Below, in pieces: positions 8,667-53,992 of a stretch of 64,000 bases of DNA. Each line of letters starts with the position of its first letter. Position 1 is the stretch's first letter. The stretch is from a virus: IMG/VR virus record IMGVR_UViG_3300045988_115146, one strand, 5' to 3'. A program made the translations under genes and the position numbers. The notes beneath the pieces were generated by a model. It was not told the DNA's origin. It saw only the letters and a program-made list of their open reading frames with translations, and searched no databases.

Positions 8667-8671
8667 TAATC

Positions 8672-9757: not shown

Positions 9758-9760
9758 ATT

Positions 9761-10144
9761 ATGGCACTTTTAATTTGGGTTATATCAGTGGTATTACTTT
9801 CATTTATTACACTTATTGTAACTACTTGGTTATGCAATATAACCGACTCTTCAAATAGCCTTATTCATAATAACAAATATAACAAGTATAAGATTTATTA
9901 CGATGCCTCATGTGACCTATATTATTGTAAGATGGTAACTAACTATCTGTTGGGTATTATCCCTATTTGGAGGAAGGTCAAATATTCAGTACCATCAGGA
10001 TTTGAAGATTCAATTTATCATATATGGTATGAAGATAATTCAGAAATTATACGGGTTGAGATGAATAAAAGTTACACTGAATACTGTGAAAGAAATGATA
10101 AGTTAAAAGCTAAGGCAAGAGTAGTATATAAGAGTTATGAATAA
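9761..10144 (+). CDS. Hypothetical membrane protein
   Basis: N-terminal TM segment LLIWVISVVLLSFITLIVTTWL. Confidence 0.5.
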   Translation: MALLIWVISVVLLSFITLIVTTWLCNITDSSNSLIHNNKYNKYKIYYDASCDLYYCKMVTNYLLGIIPIWRKVKYSVPSGFEDSIYHIWYEDNSEIIRVEMNKSYTEYCERNDKLKAKARVVYKSYE

Positions 10145-10979
10145 GGTAAAGAGAGAACCGTCAATCCATATATCCAAATCTTTATTCCGTAAATTATGGA
10201 ATGAGATTGGGGATAAAGTATCAGAAGAATTTGTGGATAAATTTTTTACAAGAGCCAGGCAATATTCTTTGGATCACAGATCTGTAGTAGGAGAGAATAA
10301 ACCAGTAAGAAAAAAGGCTATCAGTAGAACTTCAAGTAGTATAGGAGATGCTAATTTATTAGCCGATATTATATACTCTACTAGAATACAACTAAAACAT
10401 ATAGGAGTAACTAAAATAAAGCAAACAGATTTACAATGGGCATCAATAAAAGAGTTGGTACCTGTTGTAAATGAATTCTGTCAGAAGTATGGATTTGAAC
10501 CTCGTCAAGGTTATATTGAATTTGTAACTACTGGCCTTAAACTCATGGCTCAAGCCAAGAGAGTTAATTATAACTTCTGTGCTAATTGGTTACATCAAAG
10601 AGTTAATTGGATAATTGAGATATATGATTCTGAGATAGAAGTTAAAGAGGATAAATATCCAGAATATACTAGAGAGGTATATGAGAACTATACAAAGGAA
10701 ATCCTCGACAGAATAGGTATCAACAATACTTATGATAAGAATCCGCAAGAATATGTATGGTTTGTAAGAGCAAGAAAACTTGCAGATGAGATAGGGGTTG
10801 ACTATGAAACTTTTGTTCAGGCTCAATTCTATGCTCTTGAATTCTGTAATGGTATACCTAAGATAGAAGATTTATCAAATGATAAGGCTCGTCAAAGAGT
10901 AATCAATTATATGGCTAAATTTAATATTGTATCCCGACCCAAATCAGAACATGTGGATTGGGATGCCTTTAAAAGATAG
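10137..10979 (+). CDS. Hypothetical protein
   Basis: 280-aa co-directional ORF, 8-nt overlap with upstream gene. No motif recognised. Confidence 0.5.
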   Translation: MNKVKREPSIHISKSLFRKLWNEIGDKVSEEFVDKFFTRARQYSLDHRSVVGENKPVRKKAISRTSSSIGDANLLADIIYSTRIQLKHIGVTKIKQTDLQWASIKELVPVVNEFCQKYGFEPRQGYIEFVTTGLKLMAQAKRVNYNFCANWLHQRVNWIIEIYDSEIEVKEDKYPEYTREVYENYTKEILDRIGINNTYDKNPQEYVWFVRARKLADEIGVDYETFVQAQFYALEFCNGIPKIEDLSNDKARQRVINYMAKFNIVSRPKSEHVDWDAFKR

Positions 10980-10982
10980 GAT

Positions 10983-11102
10983 ATGAAAAGATATGATCCA
11001 ATGGTAGAAGCAGCTAAACCCTTATTAGTGTTATATACTGTAGCTATAATAATTGGTTTGATATTGGGTATTATTTGTTGGATATTTGATATAAGAATAT
11101 GA
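10983..11102 (+). CDS. Small (39 aa) hydrophobic protein
   Basis: MKRYDPMVEAAKPLLVLYTVAIIIGLILGIICWIFDIRI. Below ORF-track cutoff. ATGA overlap with helicase start fills an otherwise empty gap. Confidence 0.35.
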   Translation: MKRYDPMVEAAKPLLVLYTVAIIIGLILGIICWIFDIRI

Positions 11103-12529
11103 TAACTATAACTATCAAGAACTGTAATGTTTGTGAGATTTCTGGCCCAGCTAAATTCACAAATAAATTATATGAGGCTTTCAGGATCAAGCATCCTGAT
11201 GCCTGGCATATATTGATGTATAGCAGGGCAAAGAATTGGGATGGGTATGTAAAATATATCTCAGATTATGGTCAATTCAAGATAGGCCTACTGAATAAGG
11301 TTTATAATGAATGCTGTAAAATGGGACAAAAAGTAAAAATTATAGATAATAGACCCCCGTTAGGAATTAAACCAGTAATTCCAGATGTACTGGGAGATAA
11401 AAATCTACGGGAAGTACAAAAAGAAGCTCTAGAAAAGATACTAAATAATCGTGTAGGGGATACTCCTTTCCTGATTTGTGCATCAGACCTGGCTGTAAAT
11501 TTTGGTAAGACCCTTATATTTTGTGGGTTACATCAAGCCTTCAATAGGAAATTGAAAACTGTGTTGTTATTAAACAGTGCAGATTTGTTTAAGCAATTCA
11601 AAAAGGAGATTCCAGAGTTGTTACCAGGTGAAAAGATTGCATTTATCCAAGGTAGTAAATGTAATGATTGGGGTAACTTCAATGTGTGCATGGTACAGTC
11701 ATTATCGTCTAACATAAAACGGTACCAAAGATTCCTATCAGAAATTGATATGGTATTAATAGATGAGGCTGATGTCATAGATAACAAAACCTATAAAACC
11801 GTAATACAGCACTTATACAACTCTAGAATACGAATTGGATTGAGTGGTACAATTTACATGAGTGACCAGAAGAAGAAATTGATACATAACCTAAATATCA
11901 TGTCTTTCATTGGTGATAAAGTTAACCAAGTAAAACTGGTTGATATGATAGAGAAAGGATATTCTACTCCCATCACCTGTAAACTGGTATATGCTCCCTT
12001 TAAGTATTCTAAAGAAGTTGACTATCCAACAGAATACAAAGAAGTGATATGTGATAACAAAGAAGCTTGGAAGTTTTCTCTTGATCGTACAAGATACAAT
12101 CTGAAGAGAAAAAGATTGCCAGCTCTTATTGTATGTAAGTTCATTGACCATTGTGAAAATCTTTACAAGTATTACGTTAAACATCTTGGAAATGATTACA
12201 GTATACAATATGTACATCATAAGACAAAAGGGCGTGATAAAATTCTACAAGATTTCAGGGAAGGGAGAATTGATGTGCTAATTGCTACTACAATCATTTC
12301 TAGAGGTCAAAATTTCCCTGAATTGAAATATCTTCAGAATACTGCATCAATGGATTCTAATGAAAAATCGATACAGATATTGGGACGTCTTGCAAGAACT
12401 CACATGAATAAGAAGAAGGCATATCTTGATGACCTTCAATTCCCTGGTCATTACCTTAAGAGGCATGGCAATCATAGAAAAACGTATTATCAGAAAGAAA
12501 ATTTAAAGGTAATCAAGGTGGAGGGATAA
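11099..12529 (+). CDS. Superfamily II DNA helicase (DEAD/DEAH-type, UvsW/RecG-like role)
   Basis: Motif I NFGKTLI, motif II LIDEADVID, motif III LSGT, motif VI QILGRLAR. Confidence 0.75.
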   Translation: MITITIKNCNVCEISGPAKFTNKLYEAFRIKHPDAWHILMYSRAKNWDGYVKYISDYGQFKIGLLNKVYNECCKMGQKVKIIDNRPPLGIKPVIPDVLGDKNLREVQKEALEKILNNRVGDTPFLICASDLAVNFGKTLIFCGLHQAFNRKLKTVLLLNSADLFKQFKKEIPELLPGEKIAFIQGSKCNDWGNFNVCMVQSLSSNIKRYQRFLSEIDMVLIDEADVIDNKTYKTVIQHLYNSRIRIGLSGTIYMSDQKKKLIHNLNIMSFIGDKVNQVKLVDMIEKGYSTPITCKLVYAPFKYSKEVDYPTEYKEVICDNKEAWKFSLDRTRYNLKRKRLPALIVCKFIDHCENLYKYYVKHLGNDYSIQYVHHKTKGRDKILQDFREGRIDVLIATTIISRGQNFPELKYLQNTASMDSNEKSIQILGRLARTHMNKKKAYLDDLQFPGHYLKRHGNHRKTYYQKENLKVIKVEG

Positions 12530-12694
12530 TACGCACGCGTATGCGTATATACTTACCTGTATATCTCTATTAGTATTTTAGTATACTAAAATACTAATAG
12601 AGGTTTATATAGCTAAAGCTATATAAACTTATACTTTCTATACTTACTTTAGTAAGTCTTTAAGCTAAAGCTTAATAATGCGCACGCACGCATA
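12529..12694. repeat. Composite element copy 1: alternating Pu-Py tract + four perfect hairpins + second Pu-Py tract
   Basis: 24-nt perfect alternating purine-pyrimidine run 12529-12552. 34-nt palindrome 12567-12600. Palindrome GTTTATATAGCT-AA-AGCTATATAAAC 12603-12628. ACTTACT/AGTAAGT and TTAAGCT/AGCTTAA hairpins. 17-nt Pu-Py run 12678-12694. About 80 bp repeated at 54035. Confidence 0.9.
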
Positions 12695-12786
12695 AGGGAT
12701 TGCCTGAAAGTTAGTGCATATACTATTCTACATCAATGAAACAGAAAAACCTATTAACTATTGAATGATATCAAACACTCGAATAT

Positions 12787-13188
12787 ATGGCTAAGAAAAA
12801 GAAAGACAAACTTAAAGATGCCAGGGAAGAATTAGAATCAGGTGATATCCTTGAACCAATGGATATTTCTAAGTTGGGAACAAACGGAGATGTATGCTTT
12901 GGTAAGCATTATGATCTTTCAACCAAGGAATGCAAGATGTGCGGGGATTCCGAATTATGTTGTATCAAGTTCACAGATCTAATGGGTAAGACCAGAAAGG
13001 AATTAGAAGCTGATACCCAATACAAGGATTTGGAACCTTTGATTGATATGGCAGGTTGCAAGAAGTATTACCGTAAATTGGTAAGGGATAAACTTGGTAA
13101 GAGAGAAATACTTGATAAGCTTCAGAGTAGGTTTGAATTATCACGTAAAGAAGCAAGAGACTTATACCGTAAATTTAACAGTAAATAA
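12787..13188 (+). CDS. Lys-rich small protein with Cys cluster
   Basis: MAKKKKDKLKD N-terminus, CFGKH..CKMCGDSELCC cluster. No family recognised. Confidence 0.5.
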   Translation: MAKKKKDKLKDAREELESGDILEPMDISKLGTNGDVCFGKHYDLSTKECKMCGDSELCCIKFTDLMGKTRKELEADTQYKDLEPLIDMAGCKKYYRKLVRDKLGKREILDKLQSRFELSRKEARDLYRKFNSK

Positions 13189-13189
13189 C

Positions 13190-13765
13190 ATGATTCAATT
13201 AGAGTTCACAAAGATTCGGGAGGTTAAATCCCCCAACCGAGCAAACGAAGGGGATGCAGGTTTAGATTTCTATATCCCTAAGTTATCAGAAAAGGATATA
13301 CTAAGGGTGGGGGAAAAAGATTTACGTGATATGGTTGGTATCAACCGTAAGATGTATAGTAAAGGTTATATCAAGTTCAATGGTATGGGAACTGATGATC
13401 TTTATGTAATCGTTAAACCTCATGGAAGGTTGCTTATTCCATCAGGTATAAAGGTACTGATCAATCCCAAAGAGTCTATGCTAATGGCAGCAAACAAATC
13501 TGGGGTTGCTACTAAAGATGGGTTGACATTCACTGCAGAGATTGTGGATAGTCCATATACTGGTGAAATGCACATAGGTATACAAAATAATTCACCTGAA
13601 GAAGTATGGATACCTCTTCAACAGGATAAGAAGATAATGCAGTTCATACATGTTCCAATCCTACTTTCAAATCCCATAGAGATACCTAATGAGGAGTATG
13701 AAGAGAAAGCAAAGGACTGGGGAACAAGAGGAGACAAAGGATTTGGTGCACACGATAACAAATAA
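13190..13765 (+). CDS. dut: dUTP diphosphatase (trimeric dUTPase)
   Basis: AGLDFYIP, IVDSPYTGEMHIGIQN and C-terminal RGDKGFGAHD match dUTPase motifs. Start moved to the ATG at 13190, just after the upstream stop. Confidence 0.85.
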   Translation: MIQLEFTKIREVKSPNRANEGDAGLDFYIPKLSEKDILRVGEKDLRDMVGINRKMYSKGYIKFNGMGTDDLYVIVKPHGRLLIPSGIKVLINPKESMLMAANKSGVATKDGLTFTAEIVDSPYTGEMHIGIQNNSPEEVWIPLQQDKKIMQFIHVPILLSNPIEIPNEEYEEKAKDWGTRGDKGFGAHDNK

Positions 13766-13769
13766 GAAG

Positions 13770-14681
13770 ATGGACTCGAGGGACATAATTCAGGAACCTG
13801 GTATCATACCCGGTGATAAGTATTTGGAAGAGATATACTCTATGCAAAAAGAACTGTTATCTGGTTATATAGGCATAGAGGGATTACCACAATACCCAAT
13901 AGACATAAATACTAAGGCATCACAATCCTTGTTGAAGGATTTCACTGCTAGAGTGGTAGAGGAATTATCAGAGGGATATGAATCATTCCAAGCTATCAGT
14001 GAAAGTATGAGTAAAAATCATTGGAAGTTAGCTAATGGTAATTGTGAAGACTCAATCTACATTGAATTGTTAAACAATCTTCAAAATGCCAATGAAGAGA
14101 ATGCAGATGCAATACACTTCTTTGTAGAGTTGCTAATATATGCAAATGTAGGTCCAGATGACATTATGTCATATATGGAGAAGTATGCTAAGGATAATCA
14201 CTTCAATAAGATTGAAATTGATAGTTTCAATGAAATGAGAGGTGATGTATTATATACTGCTCAGAATATGGGAGTGAAATGGTTGATGGATGAGGGTAAT
14301 ATTGATGTTACACTTAATCATCAAAAGATAGATCTCTTAAAGTGGTATGAGAATAAAGATAGTGGATCTTTACCTGAATACAACATAAACTTATTAGTTG
14401 GTGGTAGGATGTATAACTATGAGGACTATGAAATTCAATATCCATACATACTGTGGAAGATAACCCATCACCTTAACATTGCTCGTAACTTTTTGAAGAA
14501 TAAGCCTTGGAAGCAATCTCAGGTAATGACTCAAGAGTTAAAGTACCAGGCTGAATTAGTGAAGGCATTCATATATTTCTGTGGATACCTTGGATGGATA
14601 GGTATGGATTCAAAGGAAGTATTCTACATCTACTTCAAAAAGAATCACATTAATATGTTCCGTCAAAAGTCGAAGTATTAA
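13770..14681 (+). CDS. All-alpha NTP pyrophosphohydrolase (MazG / dimeric dUTPase-like), tentative
   Basis: Acidic helix motifs ARVVEELSEGYESF and NANEENADAIHFFVELL plus KPWKQSQ resemble the E..E / E..D metal-binding helices of MazG/dUTPase_2 proteins. Start set at the ATG at 13770. Confidence 0.45.
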   Translation: MDSRDIIQEPGIIPGDKYLEEIYSMQKELLSGYIGIEGLPQYPIDINTKASQSLLKDFTARVVEELSEGYESFQAISESMSKNHWKLANGNCEDSIYIELLNNLQNANEENADAIHFFVELLIYANVGPDDIMSYMEKYAKDNHFNKIEIDSFNEMRGDVLYTAQNMGVKWLMDEGNIDVTLNHQKIDLLKWYENKDSGSLPEYNINLLVGGRMYNYEDYEIQYPYILWKITHHLNIARNFLKNKPWKQSQVMTQELKYQAELVKAFIYFCGYLGWIGMDSKEVFYIYFKKNHINMFRQKSKY

Positions 14682-14682
14682 T

Positions 14683-15672
14683 ATGAACATAGTAAAGAGC
14701 AATAGGCCAGTAGATGCTTGGGAGCAAATACTTGAAAATTTTTTGGTTAAGAAACCAGAATGGTTTAGTGAAGGGATAGGGTATAACTTAACCGATTCAT
14801 TATTCACTTATGATCTGGTAGTAGAGATATCAGAAGCTAAGTTTGATCCAGAATTTGATTTTGGTAAGTTATTTGGATATACAGCTACTAAGTGGACTGG
14901 ATTAATAACTAATTACCTTGATCTTGATATTCTTGATCAGGCAAAGTTAATGATAAGGAAGTTAGAGGAGAATAAGGCAGTAAATAGGAATTATCACATC
15001 GGTTTCCATTTTGCTGACAATCATGGCAGTGGAAAAGGATGCTTGGTTGGAGGTATATTCTCCCGTAAGATTGGGGTTGATAATCCTGAGGTAACAGTAA
15101 TCATACGTTCATCCGAAGTAGTTACAAGGTTGCCAATAGACATGTTGCTGTTCTGTCGTATGGGACAGTACATTTATGGTCATGATAATTTTTCATTGAA
15201 GTTAGTTATCAAGGCTGCTTGGGCAAATGATACTACCATACTTCTATATCAGAATATAAAGGACTTAAAAGAGTTCTTGAAAGAAAACTGTAATGATGAG
15301 GCTCGTAGGAAAAAGATACGTAAGTCACTGAAAAAATTAATGACAAGTGATGAGGCTAGTTATAAAACCTATGGCAACAGTTTTAGAGCTTTCAAAGTAC
15401 TTAGGAAAGATTTAGGATATAAGCAAAAATCAATGTTGGCCTCTGACTTAGAAATTGGAGATTGGGATGGAATTCCATTACCAGAGGTATGTCCATCAAT
15501 TCTAAAGCGTAACATGATAAAGAAGACATATCTTAAGTTCACAGAGAAGTATGGCCTTAAACTAAAGTTGGAAGAGAATACAGAGAAGAAAAAGAAAAAG
15601 TTGATATCATTCTCTTCACCTGATGAAGATGATATGGATGATAACGAACCAATAGCTGAGGCTAATGAGTAA
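14683..15672 (+). CDS. Thymidylate-synthase-fold protein, divergent paralog A (candidate pyrimidine C5 hydroxymethylase)
   Basis: By-eye alignment to ThyA: FGYTATKW ~ YGxQWR, GKGCLVGG ~ catalytic PCH, IIRSSEVVTRLPIDMLL ~ YQRSCDVFLGLPFNIAS (Asp replaces Asn177). Paralogous to the next ORF (DPEFDFG.., KW..LI.NY.D). Confidence 0.4.
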   Translation: MNIVKSNRPVDAWEQILENFLVKKPEWFSEGIGYNLTDSLFTYDLVVEISEAKFDPEFDFGKLFGYTATKWTGLITNYLDLDILDQAKLMIRKLEENKAVNRNYHIGFHFADNHGSGKGCLVGGIFSRKIGVDNPEVTVIIRSSEVVTRLPIDMLLFCRMGQYIYGHDNFSLKLVIKAAWANDTTILLYQNIKDLKEFLKENCNDEARRKKIRKSLKKLMTSDEASYKTYGNSFRAFKVLRKDLGYKQKSMLASDLEIGDWDGIPLPEVCPSILKRNMIKKTYLKFTEKYGLKLKLEENTEKKKKKLISFSSPDEDDMDDNEPIAEANE

Positions 15673-16450
15673 GTTAAAAGTAAAGAATAACCTGTTAGTG
15701 TTCCGAAATAGCATGAAAGCTTGGGAGGGGCTTAACAGGTTATTCTTATTCAATATTCCCGGTTTGGATATTGAAAGAATTGGTAAAGCTCAATATATAA
15801 ATGATTTGGTTATTTATATTAAAGAACCTCTAGTAGACCCGGAATTTGATTTTGGAAGGCACTTTAATTATACATCTGCTAAATGGAAATCTTTGATAGC
15901 TAATTATATAGATGAGAATTCAATGATTGATCTGAGACAAGAAGTGGTGAGATCATTGAATTCAAGAAAGATTTTCAACATAGGGTATCAGTTTGATAAT
16001 AAGCATGCACATGGAAAGAATTGTTTATTATCATTGACAGTATCAAAGAAAGCTGGTATGGATTATCCCATGATAACGGTATTCATGAGGGCTTCTGAAG
16101 TAACTAAAAGACTAATATGTGATCTTTTATTAATACAAAGAATTGGTGAATACATATTCACTGGGGATAAATTCTGTATATCAATACACTTTAGTCAGAT
16201 ATTCAATGATGATACGGTATTATTGATGTACCATGCTCATGAGGATCTATTAAAGCTTAGTGATAGAATTGGTATATATGATAGTAATTGGTATGATAGG
16301 CTGAAGTATCTACTAAAAGTAGATCCCGATAAGATAAAGTATAAGGTACATAAAAGAGCATTGAAAGTACTTAGGCCAGAATTGTTTAAGTATCCTAAAA
16401 CTCTGGCCAAGGATTGTACACTGGGTAATGAAGACTGGCTACCTTTCTAA
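15665..16450 (+). CDS. Thymidylate-synthase-fold protein, divergent paralog B
   Basis: Shares DPEFDFGRHFNYTSAKWKSLIANYID, HGKNCLLS and MRASEVTKRLICDLLL with paralog A over full length. 8-nt overlap with paralog A. Confidence 0.4.
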   Translation: MSKLKVKNNLLVFRNSMKAWEGLNRLFLFNIPGLDIERIGKAQYINDLVIYIKEPLVDPEFDFGRHFNYTSAKWKSLIANYIDENSMIDLRQEVVRSLNSRKIFNIGYQFDNKHAHGKNCLLSLTVSKKAGMDYPMITVFMRASEVTKRLICDLLLIQRIGEYIFTGDKFCISIHFSQIFNDDTVLLMYHAHEDLLKLSDRIGIYDSNWYDRLKYLLKVDPDKIKYKVHKRALKVLRPELFKYPKTLAKDCTLGNEDWLPF

Positions 16451-16494
16451 GAAAGGGAAGTCTATTGAATTGCAAACATAAAAAAATTATAACC

Positions 16495-17265
16495 ATGAGA
16501 ATATATTCAAATCCCTACGAATTGATGTCTGAGACTGCCCGTAATATATGGGAGATGGGTACAGAGGTAAAACCAAAAACTTACCAAAACAAAGTAATAG
16601 AAGGCAAAGATGAGTTCATAACTAAAGAGCTTATTTGTGAACAATATTGCTTAACTCACATGGATGATCCATCTCCATTATTTGTATTTACCAAATCTAA
16701 AGATTGGGCAGATGCCGAATTTAAAGAGAGAATTAGTGGAGTAATGGAAAATCCAGGTAAAGCTTGGGAATTACGTAAAGATATCTGGGAAGAGTTCTTA
16801 GTAAATGGGTTCTTTGATTATACCTATGCTGAACGTATGAATGAGACAGTTTCATATAAAGGCAAGGCATTTTCTAAAATAGGAGCAATTATAGAGTTGT
16901 TAAAAACAGACAACGATACTAGAAAAGCCATACTAAATATATATGGTGAGGATGGTTTTAATGAGGATTGTGATTCAAACTATCTTGGTGGTGAACATAG
17001 AATACCATGTTCAATGTATTATGATTTCCTTATCCGGGAGAATGCCAGAGGAGAAAAGCAATTAAATATTTGCTATCACCAAAGATCATCCGATTTTGTA
17101 ACTCATTTCGGAAATGATGTATATTTGGCATGGAGACTGATGGAATATGTAGCTAGTGAAGTAGGAATTAAACCTGGATATTTATATCAAACTATTGATA
17201 GTTTGCATAGCTATAAAAAAGATTGGGTAAAGTTAAAGACATCAATCCAAACTGAATTGAGATAA
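16495..17265 (+). CDS. Thymidylate synthase family enzyme (ThyA / dUMP hydroxymethylase-like)
   Basis: TRKAILNIY (SRR..w block), RIPCSMYYDF (catalytic Cys), CYHQRSSDFVTHFGNDVYLAWRLMEY (QRSxD..G.pfN) and DSLHSY (D.H.Y). Lacks the canonical DRTGTGT N-terminal block. ATG 16495 preferred over TTG 16465. Confidence 0.7.
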   Translation: MRIYSNPYELMSETARNIWEMGTEVKPKTYQNKVIEGKDEFITKELICEQYCLTHMDDPSPLFVFTKSKDWADAEFKERISGVMENPGKAWELRKDIWEEFLVNGFFDYTYAERMNETVSYKGKAFSKIGAIIELLKTDNDTRKAILNIYGEDGFNEDCDSNYLGGEHRIPCSMYYDFLIRENARGEKQLNICYHQRSSDFVTHFGNDVYLAWRLMEYVASEVGIKPGYLYQTIDSLHSYKKDWVKLKTSIQTELR

Positions 17266-17269
17266 CCTC

Positions 17270-17344
17270 ATGGGTAATGGTATGTTTTGAATGGTGTCCT
17301 ATCTGAGAATTGAGATTAAAGCTAAATAAATTACCATTACCCAT
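17270..17344. repeat. 13-bp inverted repeat flanking a 49-nt loop, immediately upstream of the tRNA cluster
   Basis: ATGGGTAATGGTA (17270-17282) pairs with TACCATTACCCAT (17332-17344). Followed by CTTT. Confidence 0.7.
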
Positions 17345-17348
17345 CTTT

Positions 17349-17425
17349 GGGCCCATAGCTCAGTTGGTAAGAGCAGCGGACTCATAATCCGAAGGTCGGG
17401 GGTTCAAGCCCCTCTGGGCCCACCA
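17349..17425 (+). tRNA. tRNA-Met (or Ile2) anticodon CAT, CCA encoded
   Basis: Cloverleaf folded by hand: acceptor GGGCCCA/TGGGCCC, D arm GCTC..GAGC, anticodon loop CTCATAA, T arm GGGGG-TTCAAGC-CCCTC, ACCA end. G1-C72 argues for an elongator type. Confidence 0.85.
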
Positions 17426-17524
17426 AAGATTTTCTCTTATTTTCTTATTTTGTGCGTGGACAATACAAACAGTCCTGGTAAATTCGAAGGTACTAGACAG
17501 TAGTGATACAGGCTAGTACCAATT

Positions 17525-17599
17525 ACGGGAGTAGCACAGTCAGGTTAGTGTACTTGCTTTGGGAGCAAGTGGTCGCAGGTTCGAATCCTGTCTCCCGTA
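17525..17599 (+). tRNA. tRNA-Pro anticodon TGG
   Basis: Acceptor ACGGGAG/CTCCCGT, anticodon stem CTTGC/GCAAG with loop TTTGGGA, T arm GCAGG-TTCGAAT-CCTGT. Confidence 0.85.
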
Positions 17600-17612
17600 C
17601 ATATTAGTAAAG

Positions 17613-17695
17613 GCTCGGATGGAGAAATAGGTAAACTCATCAGATTTAAGCTCTGACGGTCATTGACCTTGCGGGTTCGACTCCCGCTCCGAGTA
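17613..17695 (+). tRNA. tRNA-Leu anticodon TAA (class II, long variable arm)
   Basis: Acceptor GCTCGGA/TCCGAGT, anticodon stem TCAGA/TCTGA with loop TTTAAGC, variable arm GGTC-ATT-GACC, T arm GCGGG-TTCGACT-CCCGC. Confidence 0.8.
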
Positions 17696-17719
17696 CATAG
17701 TATCAAATACTCTTGTCTT

Positions 17720-18418
17720 ATGAATGATGTTATAATTACCATGGCTGGAAAGGGTACAAGAACAAATAAAGAAGTACCCAAACAATTCTTAAAAGTATCA
17801 CAAGATAAATACCTATTTGAAATCTCATTAGATAAATTTATACGTACTGGATGCTATCGTAAGATAGTTCTTGTTGTGAATCCAGAGTATGTAGAGTGGG
17901 TAAAAAATAGAATATCTAATAACTATCCAGGTAAATTAGGCAGATTAATCACAGTAATACCAGGTGGTGATACTGCACAACACTCGAGAATCTTAGGATT
18001 TGAAAGCTTATTAACAGATGAGGAATCACTTTGGCCAAATACAGTTACTTTCCATGATGGTGTAAGAGTTGGTTTCGATGAAAATCTACTAACATTCATG
18101 ATTAATAATTGTAGGTTTAATAGCACTGCATATGTACCGTATATTCCAGCAACTGGTACATTAAGATTAGATTCTGATAAGGTAGTATATACTAAGGATA
18201 AGTACATGAGGCTTCAGACTCCCATGGTATTTCCATTTTACCAATTCTATGGATGTTATAATAAGGCAAAAGATAAGGGTATAGAATACCAAACAGCTTC
18301 TGATTTGTATGAAGACAACAGTGGTTTAGTGAACTATGTAATGGGTAATAGATTGAACTTCAAGGTAACTTTCGCAGAAGATATTGATGTAGTAAGATTA
18401 TTATACAATCATGAATAA
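17720..18418 (+). CDS. IspD/TarI-family cytidylyltransferase (CDP-alcohol forming nucleotidyltransferase)
   Basis: N-terminal [23 protein letters not shown] matches the AGxGxR...PKQ(F/Y)L signature. IVLVVNP and [10 protein letters not shown] blocks. Start set to the ATG after tRNA-Leu. Confidence 0.7.
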
Positions 18419-19283
18419 TATGAGTTATATTAGTAATCATATCCATAATGGTCATCTAATAAGCAACCTTAGGAGAGAAGTATGGGATATAGAACTAGAT
18501 ATGTTAGATCTAGTAGTTAATATATGTGACAAGATAGGAGTAAAATATTATCTTGATGCAGGTACACTATTAGGTGCAGTTAGACACCAAGGATTCATAC
18601 CTTGGGATGATGATATCGATTTGGTAATGTTCAGAGATGAATATGATAAGTTTATATCATACTGTAGGGAAAATTTAGAATATCCATATTTCTTACAAGT
18701 ACCAGAAACTGATACTTCTATTTATCAACATGCAAAGATAAGGAGGAGTGATACAACAGCTATATTAGAAAGGGATCTAGAAGCTAATTGGGATTTTAAT
18801 CAAGGCATATTCATAGATATATTCCCATTAGATAGAGTTCCAGAAGATAAGGGGAAAAGGGAAAGATTTCTATATGAATTGCAATTAATTAAACTAGAAC
18901 TCTTCTTTTTAAAGAATAGGAGCTGGAAATTTGCTAATATTCCCCTTGAAAGGGAAAGAATGAATTACCTTAAAAACCTTTATGAAAAGAATAGGAAAAG
19001 GTATAATAACACTCAAGAGAATTGTTGGGCAACATTAGCTTTTCCTGAACATAACAATATCATAAAGAATATTGATTTTTACAAGAACCAATATCCGGAT
19101 GTATTCTTAACATTTGAAGGTAGAAATTTGAGAGTACCGAATATTTACCATGGAGTATTGGAAGACATATATGGAGAGGATTACTTAACTCCCAAGAAAT
19201 ATTCTGGATTACATGGTAGGATATTGGTGAATACTCATAAAACATATAAAAACAATATGGAAGACTTTCAAATATTGAAGTAG
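18411..19283 (+). CDS. LicD-family phosphotransferase (CDP-alcohol dependent, fukutin/LicD type)
   Basis: [36 protein letters not shown] is the hallmark LicD motif. 8-nt overlap with the cytidylyltransferase gene. Confidence 0.8.
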
Positions 19284-19403: not shown

Positions 19404-20972
19404 ATGGAGTCAAGATATGCCATAATAAAGAGTTTTTCACAGGTTAAGAAACTTGTGAAAGCTTGTTTGAAGACAGGTATAGCTTCAATAGACTATGAGA
19501 CTAATGCTGAAGGCATATACAATAAAACATTTAGACCAACAATTCTATCAGTAACTTTCCAGGTTGGTTCTGGAGTATCTATTCCATTATGTCATCATGA
19601 ATATGATAACCCTCATTGGAAAAAATGGCTTCTATACTTTGGTAGAAAAGTAGTTGAGAATCCAAAAGTAACTAAAGTAGGTTGGAATCTGAAGTTTGAC
19701 CTTCAGATATTCGAGTTGTATGGTATATATGTAAGAGGTACAGTACTTGATGGTATGTTAATGAAGTATCTCTTAAATGAAGAGAAACCAAATGACCTTA
19801 AATCAATGGTTCGTAGGTATTTACCAGAACACGGAGATTACGAAAAAGCTGATAAGTTTGATAAGATACCATGGAATAAAAAGCCACTGGAACCACTCTG
19901 CAAATATGGATGTCAAGATACCGATTATACCCTACGATTATCTATGTTCTTTGAGAACAAATTGATAGAAATAGGTATGTATCCATTATTAAGGCATCTG
20001 ATAATGCCAGCATCAAGAGTATTACAGCATGCAGAGAAAACTGGTTTATACCTTGATAGGAAATTCAATCAGGAATTACTTGAATCTTACAAGCCAAAGA
20101 TTGATCAAGCAACTTTAAATTGCTTGAATCTTCCCAGAGTTAAAAGATTCTCTAGATGGCTTATCCAAGAAAGAATAAGCAAATACATTTCTTCAATTGA
20201 AATGGAACTTGAAGACTTGGATTATAGTGATCCAAAAAATGCAAGGAAGATAGCTAGCAGGGAACAAAAAATATCTAACATAAGAGCTGGTGTATATACA
20301 ACCAAGAAAGAATTAGAATTAACCCGTGATATAAATCTTGGTAGTAAAGTAGACTTACCAATGTTGTTATATTCTGAAAAGGGGTTCAAATTCCCTATTA
20401 TAAAATATACGAAGGATAAGACTACAAATCGTGATACTGATAAGCCGAGTACTGATGAGGATACATTGGTAGAACTTCGGTTGTCAATTAAGAATCCCGA
20501 AAGTCCCAAAGCAATATTCTTGGATAATCTACTCAAGTTGAGAGGATTGAAGAAGATGTACACTACATATATAAAAGGGTGGCACGATAAAGTACAGGAT
20601 GATAATAAATTACATGGAAGATTTTTGATACATGGAACAACTAGCGGGAGATTGAGTTGCATAGGCGGAGATACAAAAGTATTAACTCAATATGGAGAAA
20701 TACCAATTATAGATATTAAGGATTGGATTGGTGAAGGATTATGTGCCATGACTAAAGATGGGTGGCAATTAATAGAAAACTTCATATATAAGGGTGTTGA
20801 TGATATGTATGAAGTAACACTTGAAGATGGTACTTCTATTCAATGTACTTTAGATCATAAATTTATAACTAATAAAGGTACTAAAAGATTAAGGGAAATT
20901 TACAATAAATACCGAAATACTATTGATTCTAAAATTAAACTTTTAAGATATGTCCCAGACTACGAACAATAG
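19404..20972 (+). CDS. Family A DNA polymerase, N-terminal fragment (3'-5' exonuclease + palm start) fused to split-intein N half
   Basis: Exo I SIDYET, Exo II WNLKFD, Exo III YGCQDTDY. Extein ends HGTTSGRLS at 20657. Then CIGGDTKVLT...TLDH... (104 aa, intein blocks A/B) and TAG. Confidence 0.85.
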   Translation: MESRYAIIKSFSQVKKLVKACLKTGIASIDYETNAEGIYNKTFRPTILSVTFQVGSGVSIPLCHHEYDNPHWKKWLLYFGRKVVENPKVTKVGWNLKFDLQIFELYGIYVRGTVLDGMLMKYLLNEEKPNDLKSMVRRYLPEHGDYEKADKFDKIPWNKKPLEPLCKYGCQDTDYTLRLSMFFENKLIEIGMYPLLRHLIMPASRVLQHAEKTGLYLDRKFNQELLESYKPKIDQATLNCLNLPRVKRFSRWLIQERISKYISSIEMELEDLDYSDPKNARKIASREQKISNIRAGVYTTKKELELTRDINLGSKVDLPMLLYSEKGFKFPIIKYTKDKTTNRDTDKPSTDEDTLVELRLSIKNPESPKAIFLDNLLKLRGLKKMYTTYIKGWHDKVQDDNKLHGRFLIHGTTSGRLSCIGGDTKVLTQYGEIPIIDIKDWIGEGLCAMTKDGWQLIENFIYKGVDDMYEVTLEDGTSIQCTLDHKFITNKGTKRLREIYNKYRNTIDSKIKLLRYVPDYEQ

Positions 20973-22004
20973 GCAAAAGGTATTCAAAGATAAATCTATC
21001 AACGGTCCAAGGAGAAAATTAAAGTTAATAGTAGAGGATGGTAAAAGATATATAAAGAAAGAAGATCTTTTACATTACTTCTTTCAAGAGAATTGGAATA
21101 TAGAAGACTTTAATTATCATTTTGGCATTGGTCATAGGATAGTGAGAGGTTCTCTATATAAATGGTTTACTAGGGAAGAAATAGAGGAATCTCATAGAAA
21201 GAAGATTGCTAATAAACAGATTGGTAGTAATAATTCTAATAGGATTAATTGGTATAAACCCCGTAAGCTTATACCTTTATTGGATTTAGAAGAAGCCGTT
21301 AAAAAATCTACTTGTAAACAGGATTTGAAGGAGAGACTACAATTAACTTCTTGGGAATTGTCACACATACAACAGTTCTATAACTTTAAACTACCAAATA
21401 GATCTCCTTTACTTAATACTAAACTACAGTATTCTCTTTCTAGATGTGATATAAAACTTTTATGTAAAGTTATTACTGGAATGGGATGGGAAGATGTATT
21501 TTTCTATAATACTCCTAAGGCTATCTATAAAATGGATTGTCTTATTTGGGAACTTAGGAAGATAAATCGTTCTTTGAGGAGAGCTTTTAGGAAACAGATA
21601 GTAGATAATGGTATTAAGTTTCCTACAAATTTGATAGAGTATAAATTTCACAAAGCTCTAGAAAAAATGGATATAGAGCATGAAATACAATATTATATAC
21701 CAGAACATAATATACATCTAGACTTTTTAATAAAAGGTCATTACAACTTGGAATTAGATGGAAATTTGCATGAAGAAGAAGCAGATAGTGGTAGAGACCG
21801 TATTCTCAAATCTCTTGGCTATAAAATTATAAGACTAGATTTAAAATCTCTAAATCTTACTAGATTCTCAAAAGAAAAGGAGGTAAGGAAATGTATAAAG
21901 AAATTGGTATTACCAAAGTTAAACCAATAGGTAAGAAAGGTGTATATGATTTATCCGTTATGAACTGTCATCAGTTTGTGGCTAATAATATCCTAAATCA
22001 TAAT
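20658..22004 (+). mobile_element. Split intein (IntN 20658-20969, IntC 21891-22004) with an embedded free-standing endonuclease gene
   Basis: Inserted in the invariant GRLS|S..PNLQ motif. 1347 nt (449 codons), so both polymerase halves share one frame. IntC ends VANNILNHN followed by Ser. Confidence 0.8.
20950..21930 (+). CDS. Free-standing homing endonuclease, Vsr/DUF559-like PD-(D/E)XK domain
   Basis: Different frame from the polymerase halves and overlaps both. C-terminus HEIQYYIPEHNIHLDFLIKGHYNLELDGNLHEEEADSGRDRILKSLGYKIIRLD matches the Vsr-like ..DF....l.iE.DG..H...D..Rd..L...G...iR pattern. Confidence 0.65.
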   Translation: MSQTTNNRQKVFKDKSINGPRRKLKLIVEDGKRYIKKEDLLHYFFQENWNIEDFNYHFGIGHRIVRGSLYKWFTREEIEESHRKKIANKQIGSNNSNRINWYKPRKLIPLLDLEEAVKKSTCKQDLKERLQLTSWELSHIQQFYNFKLPNRSPLLNTKLQYSLSRCDIKLLCKVITGMGWEDVFFYNTPKAIYKMDCLIWELRKINRSLRRAFRKQIVDNGIKFPTNLIEYKFHKALEKMDIEHEIQYYIPEHNIHLDFLIKGHYNLELDGNLHEEEADSGRDRILKSLGYKIIRLDLKSLNLTRFSKEKEVRKCIKKLVLPKLNQ

Positions 22005-23045
22005 TCTCAAGAACCAAACTTACAGCAAATCCCAAAGACTTCAGTAGACCCAAATATAAAGAAGCAATTAGTAGCCCCAGATGGTAAGTTGTACATGGCT
22101 CTTGACTACTCTCAAGCAGAGTTAAGAATCATGGCTCATCTGTCTGGGGATGAAACATATCTTGAGGCTTTTGCAAAAGGTCAGGATCCTCACCTTGCTA
22201 TTGCAGCAAAGAAGTATGGGGTATCATATGAGGAAGCATATAAAGCTTACAGTGATGAACAACACCCAGATCATAATCTTTGGAAGAACCGAAGAAAGCA
22301 GGCAAAACAGATTTGCTTCGGTATTATCTATGGTATTCAGAAGAAACTGCTTGCAGTTAAATTGTCAGATCCAAAAGCTGGTATTATTGTAACACCAGAT
22401 GAAGCTCAGCAGCAGTTAAATGAATTCTTCTATGAACATCCTAAGATTAAAAAGTTCATGATTCATCAAGAAAAGGTATTGATTAAGCATGGGTATATAA
22501 AATCTTTGTTCGGAAGAAAGAGAAGGTTACCTCAGGTATATTCCGATAATGAACAAGAAGCAGCATACGCAGTACGATTATCTGTTAATATGCCATGTCA
22601 ATCAGCAGCATCTGATATGAACTTATTTGCTTCAGTATTAAACTATTGGAAAATGAGACAAGGTAAGTTGCCATTTATGCAAGAGACTTGTAATGTTCAC
22701 GATGCTACCTACTATTTGGTGAGGCCAGAATATATAAATACATGGGTAGTACATGAAATATGGGAAACTTGTCGTAACCCTAATACAAAAGAATATTTTA
22801 ACTTTCAGATAGACGACGTCAATATGAGCATGGATTTTGTTATAGGACGTTCAATGGCAGAGGAATTACCATTTATACCCGGTTATGATTATAGGAAAAT
22901 GCTTAAACCAGATTTTAATCCAGATGAGTACTTAGAAGAACATCGTAAGTACAGAGGTATTGAAATAGAAGATTACCCTAAGTTGTATCCAGAAGAGATA
23001 GCTAGGAATAAAATGGAATTTGAGAAAAGGATATATGAAAGGTAA
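21891..23045 (+). CDS. Split-intein C half fused to family A DNA polymerase C-terminal fragment
   Basis: 38-aa IntC, then SQEPNLQQIP. Motif A LDYSQAELRIMAH, motif B RRKQAKQICFGIIYG, motif C NVHDATY. AAGGAGGT at 21877-21884 upstream of the ATG. Confidence 0.85.
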   Translation: MYKEIGITKVKPIGKKGVYDLSVMNCHQFVANNILNHNSQEPNLQQIPKTSVDPNIKKQLVAPDGKLYMALDYSQAELRIMAHLSGDETYLEAFAKGQDPHLAIAAKKYGVSYEEAYKAYSDEQHPDHNLWKNRRKQAKQICFGIIYGIQKKLLAVKLSDPKAGIIVTPDEAQQQLNEFFYEHPKIKKFMIHQEKVLIKHGYIKSLFGRKRRLPQVYSDNEQEAAYAVRLSVNMPCQSAASDMNLFASVLNYWKMRQGKLPFMQETCNVHDATYYLVRPEYINTWVVHEIWETCRNPNTKEYFNFQIDDVNMSMDFVIGRSMAEELPFIPGYDYRKMLKPDFNPDEYLEEHRKYRGIEIEDYPKLYPEEIARNKMEFEKRIYER

Positions 23046-26385: not shown

Positions 26386-27295
26386 AAAGCCAAGAATGCT
26401 TATGGTAGTGGACGGTAGTAACCTTGCTCACCGTTCATACCATAAGTTTAAGAATCTTAAAGCTAATAATGGAGCTGGAACAGGATTAGTATATGGGTTC
26501 TTAAGAATATTTGGTTCATACCTTGTAAGGTTTAAGCCAAGTCATGTGGTAATTACATTTGATACACATAAGAGTAAATCATCAAACTTCCGTAATGACT
26601 TATTGGAGGGTTATAAAGCTCACAGAAGTAAGGTAAGTATGGATTATGAAGACTTCAATAAACAATTGGCTTTGTTGAGAAGGATATTGAGATTACTTGG
26701 AGTTCAAATGATCATAGACAATAAAGGATTGGGACATGAATCAGATGATTACATTGCTTGGTTGGTAATAAACCATAAAGGAAAATCACTGATAATATCT
26801 TCTGACAAAGACTTCTGTCAATTGTTAGATAAGAAGGTAAAGATATTCAACCCAAGTAAAGAAACTCTAGTACATAACCAGACATGTAGAGAGATAATGG
26901 GATATTCAGCAGAAGAATGTGTTGACTACTTAATACTCAACGGAGATAAGTCAGATGACATACCTGGTTATTATGGTATGGGAGAAGTAAAGACTAGATC
27001 ATTCCTTGATAAATTTGGTAGTATAGCAGATTTTATTAATGATAGTGAAGCAGAATTCAAAGGTATAGAAAGAGATCAATTAGAAGAGTTATATAAGAAG
27101 AATAAGTCTCTGATAGACTTGAGATCTGCTTTGAATCTGTATCCAATAAAGATAATCCCTTGGGTAAAAGGATGTACTAATAATATAAGGAAAGACAGGT
27201 TATTCATGGTATTAGATAAGTTTAACCTAAGATCTTTCAAGATACCAGATTTTTTAGAACCTTTCAAAAAACTACAGACTTATGTATCACGGTAA
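26345..27295 (+). CDS. 5'-3' exonuclease / flap endonuclease (PIN-type, RNase H-like)
   Basis: MLMVVDGSNLAHRSYH, ESDDYIAWL, SSDKDFCQL, NGDKSDDIPG match Pol I 5'-nuclease/FEN acidic clusters. True start may be Met18 (26396). Confidence 0.75.
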   Translation: MIQKKMKSSQTRGRKPRMLMVVDGSNLAHRSYHKFKNLKANNGAGTGLVYGFLRIFGSYLVRFKPSHVVITFDTHKSKSSNFRNDLLEGYKAHRSKVSMDYEDFNKQLALLRRILRLLGVQMIIDNKGLGHESDDYIAWLVINHKGKSLIISSDKDFCQLLDKKVKIFNPSKETLVHNQTCREIMGYSAEECVDYLILNGDKSDDIPGYYGMGEVKTRSFLDKFGSIADFINDSEAEFKGIERDQLEELYKKNKSLIDLRSALNLYPIKIIPWVKGCTNNIRKDRLFMVLDKFNLRSFKIPDFLEPFKKLQTYVSR

Positions 27296-27941
27296 GTATC
27301 AAATTATGTTCACCGGTGTTTCTGGAGTAGGGAAAACTACTATAGCTAAAGAAATAGCCGAATTATTGAATATACCATTCATATCTGGGTCATATTCAGA
27401 TTTAGTACCAGAAACAAAAGATATGCCACATGCTGATATGATACAGCAAGATGCAAAAACAGTATTTATGCAAGATATGCAAGTATTGAATCTACGTAAC
27501 AAAGCTTTCCGAATGGAAGATAACTTTGTAACAGATAGATCATACTTTGATTCTGCAGCATATTTCATTAATAAGTTATCCCATAGAATTGAAGAATGTG
27601 ATCTAGATCATGCCATCAACTTATGTAGAATGTTACTTGGTCAACAGTGTACACATTTGATATTCATACCATTTTCGGATAAATTCTTTAATGAGTGGGT
27701 AACTGAGAATAATGGTAAAAGGGTATTGTCAAAGTACTACCAATATCAAGTATCTCAAATAATGTATGGTTTATTAAAAGTATGGGGATATAAACCAGAT
27801 TCAAAAATATATCAACTATGTAATGGAGTTCCCAATACAGGGGTGATGGATATAATGGGTTATAAGGTAAAAGTTCTCATACTTGATGAGATGAATCACG
27901 AAAAGAGAGAATACTTAATCAGGAAGTTTCTTCAGTTATGA
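27282..27941 (+). CDS. P-loop kinase (candidate dNMP kinase)
   Basis: MFTGVSGVGKTTIAKEIAELL Walker A at the N-terminus, about 210 aa, in a nucleotide/DNA metabolism context. Confidence 0.4.
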   Translation: MYHGKYQIMFTGVSGVGKTTIAKEIAELLNIPFISGSYSDLVPETKDMPHADMIQQDAKTVFMQDMQVLNLRNKAFRMEDNFVTDRSYFDSAAYFINKLSHRIEECDLDHAINLCRMLLGQQCTHLIFIPFSDKFFNEWVTENNGKRVLSKYYQYQVSQIMYGLLKVWGYKPDSKIYQLCNGVPNTGVMDIMGYKVKVLILDEMNHEKREYLIRKFLQL

Positions 27942-52999: not shown

Positions 53000-53992
53000 A
53001 TGAATGTACTTGGTATCTGTGGAGCGCAAGGAGCGCTTCTTTTCGAGTTTAAAGATCATCTTGTAGCTAATGTTGAACCAAGAGCTGTATTCCATTCCAA
53101 AGGAGAACTACAATGGAAGCTTAATTTTGGTGATATTCCATTCTTAAAGAGCCTTGAAGAGGTGAAATTTACCAAAATTGACATAATCATTGGTTCTCCA
53201 TCCTGTGGTCATAGCTCTGTATTCTCCTATTCAAGGAAGAAAACCCTGGGTAAACCAAGAGAAGATGCAACCTTAAATCTGTATCTTTCTAGTGTTAAGA
53301 AGTTCAAACCAGCAGTATTTATGCTTGAGAACCTTCCAAAGCTTCTAGATTTCATCCCTATCAGTGAATGGGAAAATAATTTGCCTGATTATCAGCTTAT
53401 AGTACACTGTCATTCCGTTACGGTATTTGGTAATTCCCAGAAAAGTAGGAAAAGATTAGTGATGATAGGAGTACGTAAGGATTCTGGAATCAATCCAAAA
53501 GTATTTGATCACACTTTTCAAGTAACTAAGCCTAAGAATCTGTGTCAATTGAAGAAAAAAGTAAGAAAAGACATAAATTACAGAGAATCTGATGACAAGA
53601 AATTAGCAATGTATCATTATGCTGATAAGTCTAAGACTACACTTACTGTAGCTCAAGTGAGGAAGCTATGGAAAACTGAATTCAAAAATGATCACAAATG
53701 GCCAATGAGAACTCATAAGATGAAAACTCTACCAGGAGTATATCGCAATAGGAAGAAAGGTTACCCTTTGACTGTGAGACCTTCATCCAGGCAATTTAAT
53801 CCTCATGGAAGGATAATGGGACTTGATGAATATAGAGTCATCATGGGATTCCCAGAATCATTTAAGGTATATTTTGATAAGAACAATCCAACCTATTGGT
53901 TGAACAAGGGGAGGAATACCCTGACAAAAGGAGCTGTATACGAGAATTCACTTTGGTTAAAGGCTTGCTTGAGGAAAGCTAAAATACTCTAA
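53000..53992 (+). CDS. DNA (cytosine-5) methyltransferase-like enzyme with non-canonical motifs
   Basis: Motif I-like GICGAQG, motif IV GSPSCGHS (PCQ replaced by SCG), motif VI MLENLP, motif VIII QKSRKRLVMIG, motif IX/X IMGFPESF...GRNTLTKGAV. Confidence 0.6.
   Translation: MNVLGICGAQGALLFEFKDHLVANVEPRAVFHSKGELQWKLNFGDIPFLKSLEEVKFTKIDIIIGSPSCGHSSVFSYSRKKTLGKPREDATLNLYLSSVKKFKPAVFMLENLPKLLDFIPISEWENNLPDYQLIVHCHSVTVFGNSQKSRKRLVMIGVRKDSGINPKVFDHTFQVTKPKNLCQLKKKVRKDINYRESDDKKLAMYHYADKSKTTLTVAQVRKLWKTEFKNDHKWPMRTHKMKTLPGVYRNRKKGYPLTVRPSSRQFNPHGRIMGLDEYRVIMGFPESFKVYFDKNNPTYWLNKGRNTLTKGAVYENSLWLKACLRKAKIL

Follow-up and report, generated by a model that had tools for sequence, protein, structure and literature searches.

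The window analysed here is a 64,000-nucleotide stretch of viral DNA (IMG/VR record IMGVR_UViG_3300045988_115146), and its positions 13,190 to 19,283 hold an island of seven genes and three tRNAs embedded among replication genes. In order, these encode a trimeric dUTPase-family enzyme (13190..13765; PF00692, E 4e-9), an all-alpha NTP pyrophosphatase of the dimeric d(C/U)TPase/MazG type (13770..14681; PF08761), two paralogous proteins assigned to the thymidylate synthase (TS) fold by AlphaFold2 (AF2) models and Foldseek, hereafter C (14683..15672) and D (15665..16450), the TS homolog E (16495..17265; PF00303, E 2.5e-15), tRNA-Met(CAT), tRNA-Pro(TGG) and tRNA-Leu(TAA) (17349..17696; ARAGORN), an IspD/TarI-family cytidylyltransferase (17720..18418; PF01128, 2.8e-25) and a LicD-family phosphotransferase (18411..19283; PF04991, 4.6e-39). 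Genes for DnaB helicase, primase and a superfamily 2 (SF2) helicase flank the island on its 5' side, and those for a family A DNA polymerase (PolA), a gp32-like single-stranded DNA-binding protein (SSB), RecA/UvsX, FEN, a P-loop kinase and Mre11/Rad50 follow on its 3' side; throughout the helicase-to-polymerase interval the island genes run on the + strand with minimal spacers. The original prediction had read this arrangement as a single pathway for DNA-base hypermodification, and the seven genes, the three tRNAs, the polymerase and the downstream kinase all lie, on the + strand, where it had placed them.

The island region is 96% identical to GenBank MT121964.1 ("Phage DP SC_6_H4_2017"), a phage genome of 75.5 kb that was obtained from human faeces and carries almost no annotation. 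Baseplate J, DnaB, the primase (phrog_47), PolA and the ispD/licD insertion are all found in the window and fit 'Flandersviridae' by description, a group of syntenic phages with baseplate and contractile-tail genes defined by Benler et al. 2021 with Bacteroides and Parabacteroides as hosts on the evidence of CRISPR spacers (PMC8008677). When compared with a relative that is 91–95% identical, all seven island genes are under purifying selection, with ratios of nonsynonymous to synonymous substitution (dN/dS) of 0.04–0.13, namely 0.04–0.06 for the genes of the nucleotide module, 0.13 for IspD and 0.07 for LicD. A scan for sigma-70 promoters and terminators performed no better than on shuffled sequence.

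The dUTPase matches phrog_135 (6.7e-17) and NCBIfam dut (1.5e-14, under the curated cut-off), and its five motifs are visible by eye in the translation (AGLDF, NKSG, IVDSPYTGE, KIMQ and RGDKGFG). It is expected to remove dUTP and supply dUMP, and a role on dCTP is also possible. The pyrophosphatase scores 27.8 bits against PF08761 (cut-off 22.9), the match spanning only the C-terminal 60 aa, and it also matches phrog_12184 (4.8e-20) and phrog_173 (5.5e-11); its acidic, MazG-like pattern EELxEGYE ... EExADxxH is largely conserved, in at least 90% of the sequences in alignment A9. Because sequence and profile searches of the PDB returned no match, its assignment as an all-alpha NTP pyrophosphatase is no more than moderately supported, and by analogy with T4 gp56 it is a candidate dCTP-depleting, dCMP-supplying enzyme. 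The P-loop kinase-like protein (27282..27941, + strand; phrog_2107 'thymidylate kinase', 1e-8) shows weak Pfam matches to PF01712 (dNK) and PF02223 (Thymidylate_kin), both under their cut-offs, and its syntenic homolog in a non-gut relative (L173) has a PF01712 dNK match on record, which together mark it as a candidate kinase for dNMPs, possibly modified ones.

Putative cytosine-type active sites in three TS-fold proteins

The substrate and product preferences of the TS superfamily can be followed at a few diagnostic positions of ThyA, given here in E. coli numbering. C146 is the catalytic Cys, exchange of N177 for Asp in ThyA and in T4 gp42 shifts the substrate from dUMP to dCMP, exchange of L143 for Asp or Glu admits water and yields a non-methyl product, and D169 replaced by Asn marks the flavin-dependent 5-hydroxy-dCMP synthases (Lee et al., NAR 2026, PMC13326640). 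In the E family these residues were read from profile alignments to the bona fide TS 4dq1, MilA, AfhB and E. coli ThyA. E displays the motifs RIPC, QRSSD and HFGND; C146 and R166 are present, D169 is Asp, N177 is replaced by Asp and L143 by Arg, none of them varying across thirteen orthologs and two marine relatives. The Asn177 that pairs with uracil O4/N3 in ThyA, and so gives it its dUMP specificity, is thus Asp in E and in all its orthologs. In our reading E is not a canonical ThyA, and its active-site residues predict that it acts on a cytosine nucleotide.

By sequence, the nearest solved relative of E is AfhB (3e-12), and for this reason E was considered as a 5-hydroxy-dCMP synthase; the candidate was rejected because the D169N signature is missing, E having QRSSD where AfhB has RSQN. 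The 5-hydroxy-dCMP synthases (RB69 gp48, DLP3 gp80 and HY126 AfhB; PDB 9iqu/9iqc) are nevertheless closest to E by sequence and to C and D by fold, act on dCMP, and share with the window proteins an Asp at the N177 position; they differ from them at D169, where E has Asp and C and D have Glu.

C and D are paralogs of each other (35% identity, E 2e-45), have no match in Pfam or NCBIfam, and show no significant BLASTP similarity to E; D falls into phrog_34294, whose function is not annotated. The AF2 model of D, built on an alignment of relatives, has a pLDDT of 91.3 and a pTM of 0.90, and its Foldseek matches in the PDB are AfhB (9iqu, 1.1e-6), the CMP hydroxymethylase MilA (6e-6), T4 dCMP hydroxymethylase (dCH, 1e-3) and ThyA (1e-2), all significant matches belonging to the TS superfamily. 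C, modelled on its own (pLDDT 87), likewise matches only this superfamily, with AfhB at 1.7e-5 followed by MilA, varicella-zoster virus (VZV) TS and T4 dCH. The models therefore indicate that C and D really are TS-fold proteins, and the earlier count of three TS-fold genes holds. This assignment is settled by fold comparison only, since homology is not significant at the level of sequence: a PDB profile search with C and D returned noise only, and hhalign aligns them to TS with a probability of 0.6–1.6%, the catalytic motifs nevertheless lying in the correct register.

The C/D family has its own pattern of invariant or nearly invariant residues, a Cys, an Arg about 22 residues on, a Ser-Glu pair, and an Asp eight residues past the Glu. 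C carries the family-invariant Cys120, Ser144-Glu145 and Asp153 and the nearly invariant Arg142. In the low-probability hhalign alignment these residues are in register with the PC...QRSSD...ND motifs of E and with C146, R166, D169 and N177 of TS, which puts Glu at the D169 position and the invariant Asp153 at that of N177. All three TS-fold proteins thus appear to keep the catalytic Cys and Arg and to have the cytosine-specific Asp at the N177 position. The homolog search behind the alignment used to model D gave 132 relatives, none of them with a precomputed Pfam domain, the longest carrier contigs being of about 60–84 kb, and a profile search run exhaustively over 1.84 billion proteins yielded only 256 cluster representatives. 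Given these 256 representatives and 42 distant members for which a Pfam search returned no family, the C/D family is, on the evidence of the models, a small and previously undescribed branch of the TS fold. C also ends in a disordered, strongly acidic tail (residues 296–329, window 15568-15672; …SSPDEDDMDDNEPIAEANE), which D lacks and which resembles the protein-interaction tails of phage replication proteins.

Every island protein was compared by tblastn with 95 related loci; 79 of these came from scanning viral contigs with the C/D profile, where the 80 best of at least 560 matches were kept. Nearly all 95 loci share the gene order helicase, orf133, dUTPase, pyrophosphatase, C/D, TS, PolA, SSB and kinase, and this synteny holds down to about 40% amino-acid identity, with a single C/D gene in some distant loci. 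The orf133 of this order is a Cys-rich, zinc-ribbon-like ORF of 133 aa (12787..13188, + strand), which always stands between the SF2 helicase and the dUTPase, recurs in this place in almost every related locus at 49–100% identity, and has no significant match in Pfam. Marine and other non-gut relatives (L172 and L173) keep the synteny of the replication module with one C/D gene, an N177D TS and an added dCMP deaminase, which shows that Flanders-like phages are not confined to the gut.

A distant member of the C/D family led to cultured Clostridium perfringens phages, including P21, CPD4 (MK017819), CPAS-15, CP3 and Dolk21 among others. P21_00026 of phage P21 aligns with the C/D profile at an hhalign probability of 97% (E 1e-10), with the Cys, Arg, Glu and Asp aligned, and directly precedes a "thyA" that shares with E 41% identity and the signature (here RVPC, MRSSD and HFAND), the two forming a unit at 7001-8555 of this locus (L175; OP381444.1). 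Unrelated phages thus conserve a C/D-family gene and an E-type TS behind it as a unit of two genes, which argues for a coupled function. The family member of CPAS-15 is annotated as 'colanic acid biosynthesis glycosyltransferase', a label that appears to be wrong. Literature searches found no report of DNA modification in Bacteroides phages or in these Clostridium phages.

The nucleotide genes also resemble the T4 5-hydroxymethylcytosine (hmC) pathway (gp56 dCTPase/dUTPase, gp42 dCMP hydroxymethylase, gp1 dNMP kinase and the alpha/beta-glucosyltransferases), which the original prediction had taken as their model: both have a dNTP pyrophosphatase, a TS-fold enzyme with Asp for N177 and a P-loop kinase, set among the replication genes beside that of the polymerase. 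This part of the comparison, the precursor module with its cytosine-type residue, stands. The hydroxymethylated product that was expected with it is less secure, since of the T4-type residue pair E has N177D together with an invariant Arg, rather than Asp or Glu, at the L143 position. The window further differs from T4 in having three TS-fold enzymes, two of them from a family without a Pfam model, and in that, of the window ORFs that were scanned, none was recognised as a glycosyltransferase, as had been noted before.

A more ordinary account is that the TS-fold enzymes, the dUTPase and the pyrophosphatase boost and sanitise the dTTP and dNTP pools of a phage whose DNA is canonical. It is difficult to reconcile with an Asp in place of Asn177 in every TS homolog of the group, which disfavours dUMP, and with a nearest solved relative that for all three proteins is a dCMP hydroxylase and not ThyA; moreover, three TS-fold enzymes, two of them with (near-)invariant putative catalytic Cys, Arg and Asp residues, are hard to explain by dTMP synthesis. 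Pool management is, on the other hand, what many phages carry ThyA, dUTPase and MazG for, and the dCMP deaminase that the marine relatives add stands beside the TS gene, as in dTMP synthesis. These phages also assemble readily from ordinary shotgun libraries (PMC8008677), and the window contains, outside the island, a DNA cytosine methyltransferase-like gene (53000..53992, + strand; phrog_116, 3.7e-10), which implies unmodified C5 positions. Taken together, we consider ordinary nucleotide supply unlikely, and the least unlikely of the alternatives. The methyltransferase-like gene, which coexists with the predicted cytosine-modifying module, is 92% identical to QIW89998.1, which MT121964.1 annotates as 'DNA cytosine methyltransferase'.

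The IspD/LicD cassette and its distribution

The cytidylyltransferase is an IspD-family member (PF01128) at the family level only, as it scores 105 bits against NCBIfam ispD (cut-off 181) and 62 bits against ribitol-5-phosphate cytidylyltransferase (cut-off 166) and so misses both equivalog or subfamily cut-offs. Its PDB matches are IspD 1vpa (6e-19) and the TarI-type 4jis (2.6e-9), and a word-index homolog search returned its own clade only. Ranking IspD above TarI, with both under the cut-off, these comparisons do not discriminate between donors. No TarJ-like ribulose-5-phosphate reductase is encoded, and CDP-methylerythritol from the host's methylerythritol phosphate (MEP) pool would be as plausible as CDP-ribitol, the MEP pathway being one that we assume Bacteroides to have.

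LicD scores 135 bits against PF04991 (cut-off 22.6), and its sole solved relative by sequence is FKRP (1.7e-9). Invariant in its alignment (A2) are G-T-L-L-G, R-H, the PWDDD motif (P64, W65, D66, D67 and D68), D70 (position 69 is variable), D136 and D141. The IspD and LicD ORFs overlap by 8 nt, and the two may possibly be translationally coupled. Mammalian ISPD with FKTN/FKRP and bacterial TarI with LicD-type enzymes show the same pairing, in which a CDP-polyol is made and a phosphodiester is formed on a hydroxyl acceptor, and from this analogy it is a sound inference that IspD would make a CDP-activated polyol phosphate from which LicD would move the phospho-polyol to a hydroxyl. The window differs from these systems in lacking TarJ, in having both proteins far under the NCBIfam equivalog cut-offs and in its phage replication-module context. 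A choline system of the licABCD type was rejected, as the partner of LicD is IspD-type and the window has no LicA choline kinase, LicB transporter or LicC cytidylyltransferase. A search of INPHARED gave no LicD homolog in any cultured and annotated phage.

Among the related loci, only those of the clade to which the window belongs (amino-acid identity of at least 87%; for example IMGVR_UViG_3300045988_105920) have the IspD/LicD pair. A sister clade without the pair (for example IMGVR_UViG_3300045988_073327) keeps the neighbouring genes at 70–92% identity, and all more distant relatives are also without it. Boundary alignments place the left end of the insertion at the 3' end of tRNA-Leu and the right end about 80 bp before the polA start, and sister clades without the cassette have the same tRNAs. 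Some sister-clade contigs carry other cargo at the same tRNA-Leu/polA site, as in L055 (12525-13710), where it comprises a 111-aa ORF, a 202-aa phrog_6721 protein and a DUF3310 protein; the site is thus a cargo hot spot. In one member of the LicD-bearing clade (L027, 11686-20783) similarity ends after tRNA-Met and there is no tRNA-Pro, tRNA-Leu, IspD, LicD or PolA, which may reflect a chimeric assembly or a rearrangement.

The window pair appears to be the same feature as the adjacent ispD/licD-family genes that Benler et al. 2021 reported in part of the 'Flandersviridae', where they form a non-essential insert among the replication genes and ispD was read as isoprenoid metabolism (PMC8008677). 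The TS-fold paralogs, the cytosine-type active sites and the recurrence of the cassette elsewhere are not mentioned there (PMC8008677).

Outside this clade, the next-closest LicD homologs (38–49% identity) stand in phage-like contexts wherever the contig was examined, in five protein look-ups and in the loci of the viral-contig scan. The order IspD then LicD, with unchanged spacing, is also seen in at least three further phage groups. The first (L106-L114) has contigs of up to 85 kb; in one of these, L110 (9310-16103), the cassette lies about 3–5 kb upstream of genes for a DNA N6/N4 methyltransferase, GTP cyclohydrolase I and a DUF3109 protein, perhaps a cluster related to 7-deazaguanine or folate. 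The second (L115-L125, L132 and L096) has contigs of 100–174 kb and a LicD with four in-frame TGA codons, and the third is a 21-kb contig (L103) where the cassette adjoins genes for an SSB and a CCA-adding enzyme. At least two of the four TGA codons in the second group (L118, 9310-10870) fall where the LicD consensus has Trp, which identifies these phages, by sequence, as TGA-recoded; IspD has none. LicD also occurs alone, beside ligase, DenV and FEN genes in L099, upstream of a prohead protease and Gp23 in L101, and as two copies directly after a Peptidase_S74 tail-fibre gene in L104 and L105. Within +/-10 kb, the cassette groups have no homolog of TS, C/D, dUTPase or pyrophosphatase. Cassette and TS module thus do not seem to travel together, most genomes with the TS module being without the cassette and its other carriers being without a TS-like gene in that interval.

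A further contig bears on the meaning of gene neighbourhood. L137 (IMGVR_UViG_3300045988_139937), a 56-kb gut phage contig, contains at 4941-13891, between ThyX and a dUTPase, a complete lic-type phosphorylcholine operon of choline kinase, LicC-type cytidylyltransferase, BCCT choline transporter and LicD, for which no published description was found. Its transporter and kinase point to a classical surface-decoration role. In five more loci of this group (L129, L135, L136, L138 and L142) a dUTPase-like tblastn match comes right after LicD. Because the L137 lic operon adjoins nucleotide genes too, adjacency to TS and dUTPase genes is a weak argument for DNA as the acceptor.

Downstream of the cassette, the gene for PolA (19404..23045, + strand; Pfam) is fractured. 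Its N-terminal part, ending in an intein-N half (CIGGDTKV...), spans 19404-20972, the intein-C half and the C-terminal part of the polymerase span 21891-23045, and a DUF559-type endonuclease ORF (20950-21930) lies between the intein halves in another frame, the polA reading frame being full of stops between 20970 and 21861. The polymerase of the window is therefore probably made by trans-splicing of two intein-bearing parts; in the relative L055 PolA is uninterrupted at 762 aa. An HNH endonuclease with a resolvase-type helix-turn-helix follows directly after polA (23020-23529). The relatives have gaps of variable length at the pyrophosphatase/C, D/TS and TS/PolA junctions, which suggests that the module takes frequent insertions of small mobile ORFs.

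Two proposed adjacent systems and the probable acceptor of LicD

The reading that we prefer, with a confidence that stands at about even, is that the island consists of two separate things that lie side by side, a vertically inherited module for cytosine nucleotides and a horizontally mobile IspD/LicD cassette. In the module, the d(C/U)TPase-like pyrophosphatase and the trimeric dUTPase would turn dCTP and dUTP into monophosphates, the three TS-fold enzymes with their cytosine-type pockets would act on dCMP at C5, as their active-site signatures suggest, and the P-loop kinase together with the host NDP kinase would re-phosphorylate the product for incorporation by the phage PolA, by analogy with T4 and RB69. 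The N177-to-Asp signatures, the conserved gene block and the C/D-E pair in cultured phages make such a pre-replicative cytosine modification likely. That the C/D family catalyses a new reaction at C5 of cytosine is a tentative proposal, somewhat short of an even chance, and is ranked as more probable than an action of LicD on DNA.

The cassette would then be an accessory two-gene unit, inserted between tRNA-Leu and polA in the subclade of the window only, which, to judge from the ISPD/TarI and FKTN/FKRP/LicD families, would make a CDP-polyol and transfer the phospho-alcohol to a hydroxyl acceptor. This acceptor would most likely be an envelope glycan of Bacteroides, or perhaps the virion, and not DNA, in agreement with the reading of Benler et al. 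2021; for the envelope glycan the chances seem roughly balanced.

Several observations weigh against this view of two systems. The modified base is inferred from active-site residues alone, a C5-cytosine methyltransferase-like gene is odd in a genome whose cytosines are all replaced at C5, and the glycan acceptor is likewise without positive evidence. The five nearest LicD relatives examined occur in phage-like contexts, several of them in DNA metabolism, and the genes near LicD include ligase, DenV and FEN (L099), SSB (L103), and a DNA methylase with GTP cyclohydrolase I (L110). In the window itself the cassette runs in the same direction as the TS genes and polA, with little space between them. 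Remodelling of the host surface, finally, profits a lytic phage less than a temperate one.

The competing proposal, which follows the original prediction, makes IspD and LicD a post-replicative decoration step, in which LicD would put a polyol phosphate (ribitol phosphate, methylerythritol phosphate or similar, donated via CDP) on 5-hydroxymethyl- or 5-hydroxycytosine in phage DNA, with a non-backbone phosphodiester as the result. Its chemistry has a precedent. The DNA of SP-15 contains glucuronolactone-1-phosphate phosphodiester-linked to 5-(4',5'-dihydroxypentyl)uracil, and the authors of the SP-15 genome suggested that a CDP-glycerol glycerophosphotransferase gene is responsible for that modification (PMC5977210). 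The statement that no phosphodiester-linked modification of phage DNA had been described was therefore wrong (PMC5977210), and the precedent makes an action of LicD on DNA chemically respectable but less unprecedented. The likeness extends to the non-backbone phosphodiester on a modified pyrimidine and to a teichoic-acid-type phosphotransferase gene in the proposed cluster; SP-15 differs in that its base is derived from uracil, not cytosine, and its enzyme is a CDP-glycerol glycerophosphotransferase, not LicD, while its enzymology is likewise proposed only.

Position also favours the proposal, since the cassette lies within the replication and nucleotide module, on the same strand, after the TS genes and before polA, in a window where no glycosyltransferase was recognised, and the phage-like contexts of the five nearest LicD relatives are often near DNA enzymes. 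Both cassette genes are under purifying selection, and T-even-like phages as a rule combine a constant base pathway with decoration genes that vary (PMC13326640). The comparative data tell against it. Sister clades keep an identical module, the whole of it at 80–90% amino-acid identity, without the cassette; the insertion site is a cargo hot spot and the insertion has been published as non-essential; other phages with the cassette have no TS-like, dUTPase or MazG gene within +/-10 kb; and the lic operon of L137 makes adjacency to ThyX and dUTPase unspecific. The reaction would also need a free hydroxyl on the base, which is itself only presumed. We know of no LicD-family enzyme that acts on DNA, and literature searches found none, nor any precedent for a LicD or a cytidylyltransferase in phage DNA modification. 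The pair is best described as an already published accessory insertion whose link to DNA rests on its position and is weakened by the comparative data, and we hold its role as a DNA-decorating step to be improbable.

Decoration of a virion component, such as a capsid or tail-fibre glycan, in place of the host envelope or DNA is the weakest of the alternatives and quite improbable, given that the window cassette stands in the replication module far from structural genes and that no glycosyltransferase to build an acceptor glycan was found, against which can be set the LicD genes after the tail-fibre gene in L104 and L105 and ahead of the genes for the prohead protease and Gp23 (L101), as well as, weakly, the TGA codons in LicD but not IspD of the recoded phages of about 170 kb, which would fit late expression of LicD if recoding marks late genes.

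Significance for gut phages and the TS superfamily

Of the two systems distinguished in the preferred reading, the nucleotide half has proved stronger than the original prediction could show and is the part worth pursuing, with its putative cytosine-type pockets, its new family of the TS fold and a gene pair that extends to cultured phages. 'Flandersviridae' are reportedly detected in human gut viromes about as often as crAss-like phages, and to our knowledge nothing is known about their DNA chemistry. The IspD/LicD cassette, for its part, is a mobile auxiliary module of several unrelated gut phage groups with an unexplored function in phage-host interaction. Should LicD act on DNA after all, this would be a teichoic-acid-like phosphodiester hypermodification with identifiable enzymes, encoded on a cassette that moves between gut phages and set on a base that the N177D homolog of TS would make together with the C/D enzymes.

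The TS superfamily gained its flavin-dependent hydroxylase branch only in 2025-26, and the conserved trio of putative cytosine-type TS-fold enzymes points to a pyrimidine modification that is not yet catalogued. The presence of the C/D and E pair in cultured C. perfringens phages makes the question directly testable. If true, a cytosine modification in these phages would bear on the evasion of restriction and CRISPR, on sequencing bias in virome studies and on the enzymology of the TS superfamily.

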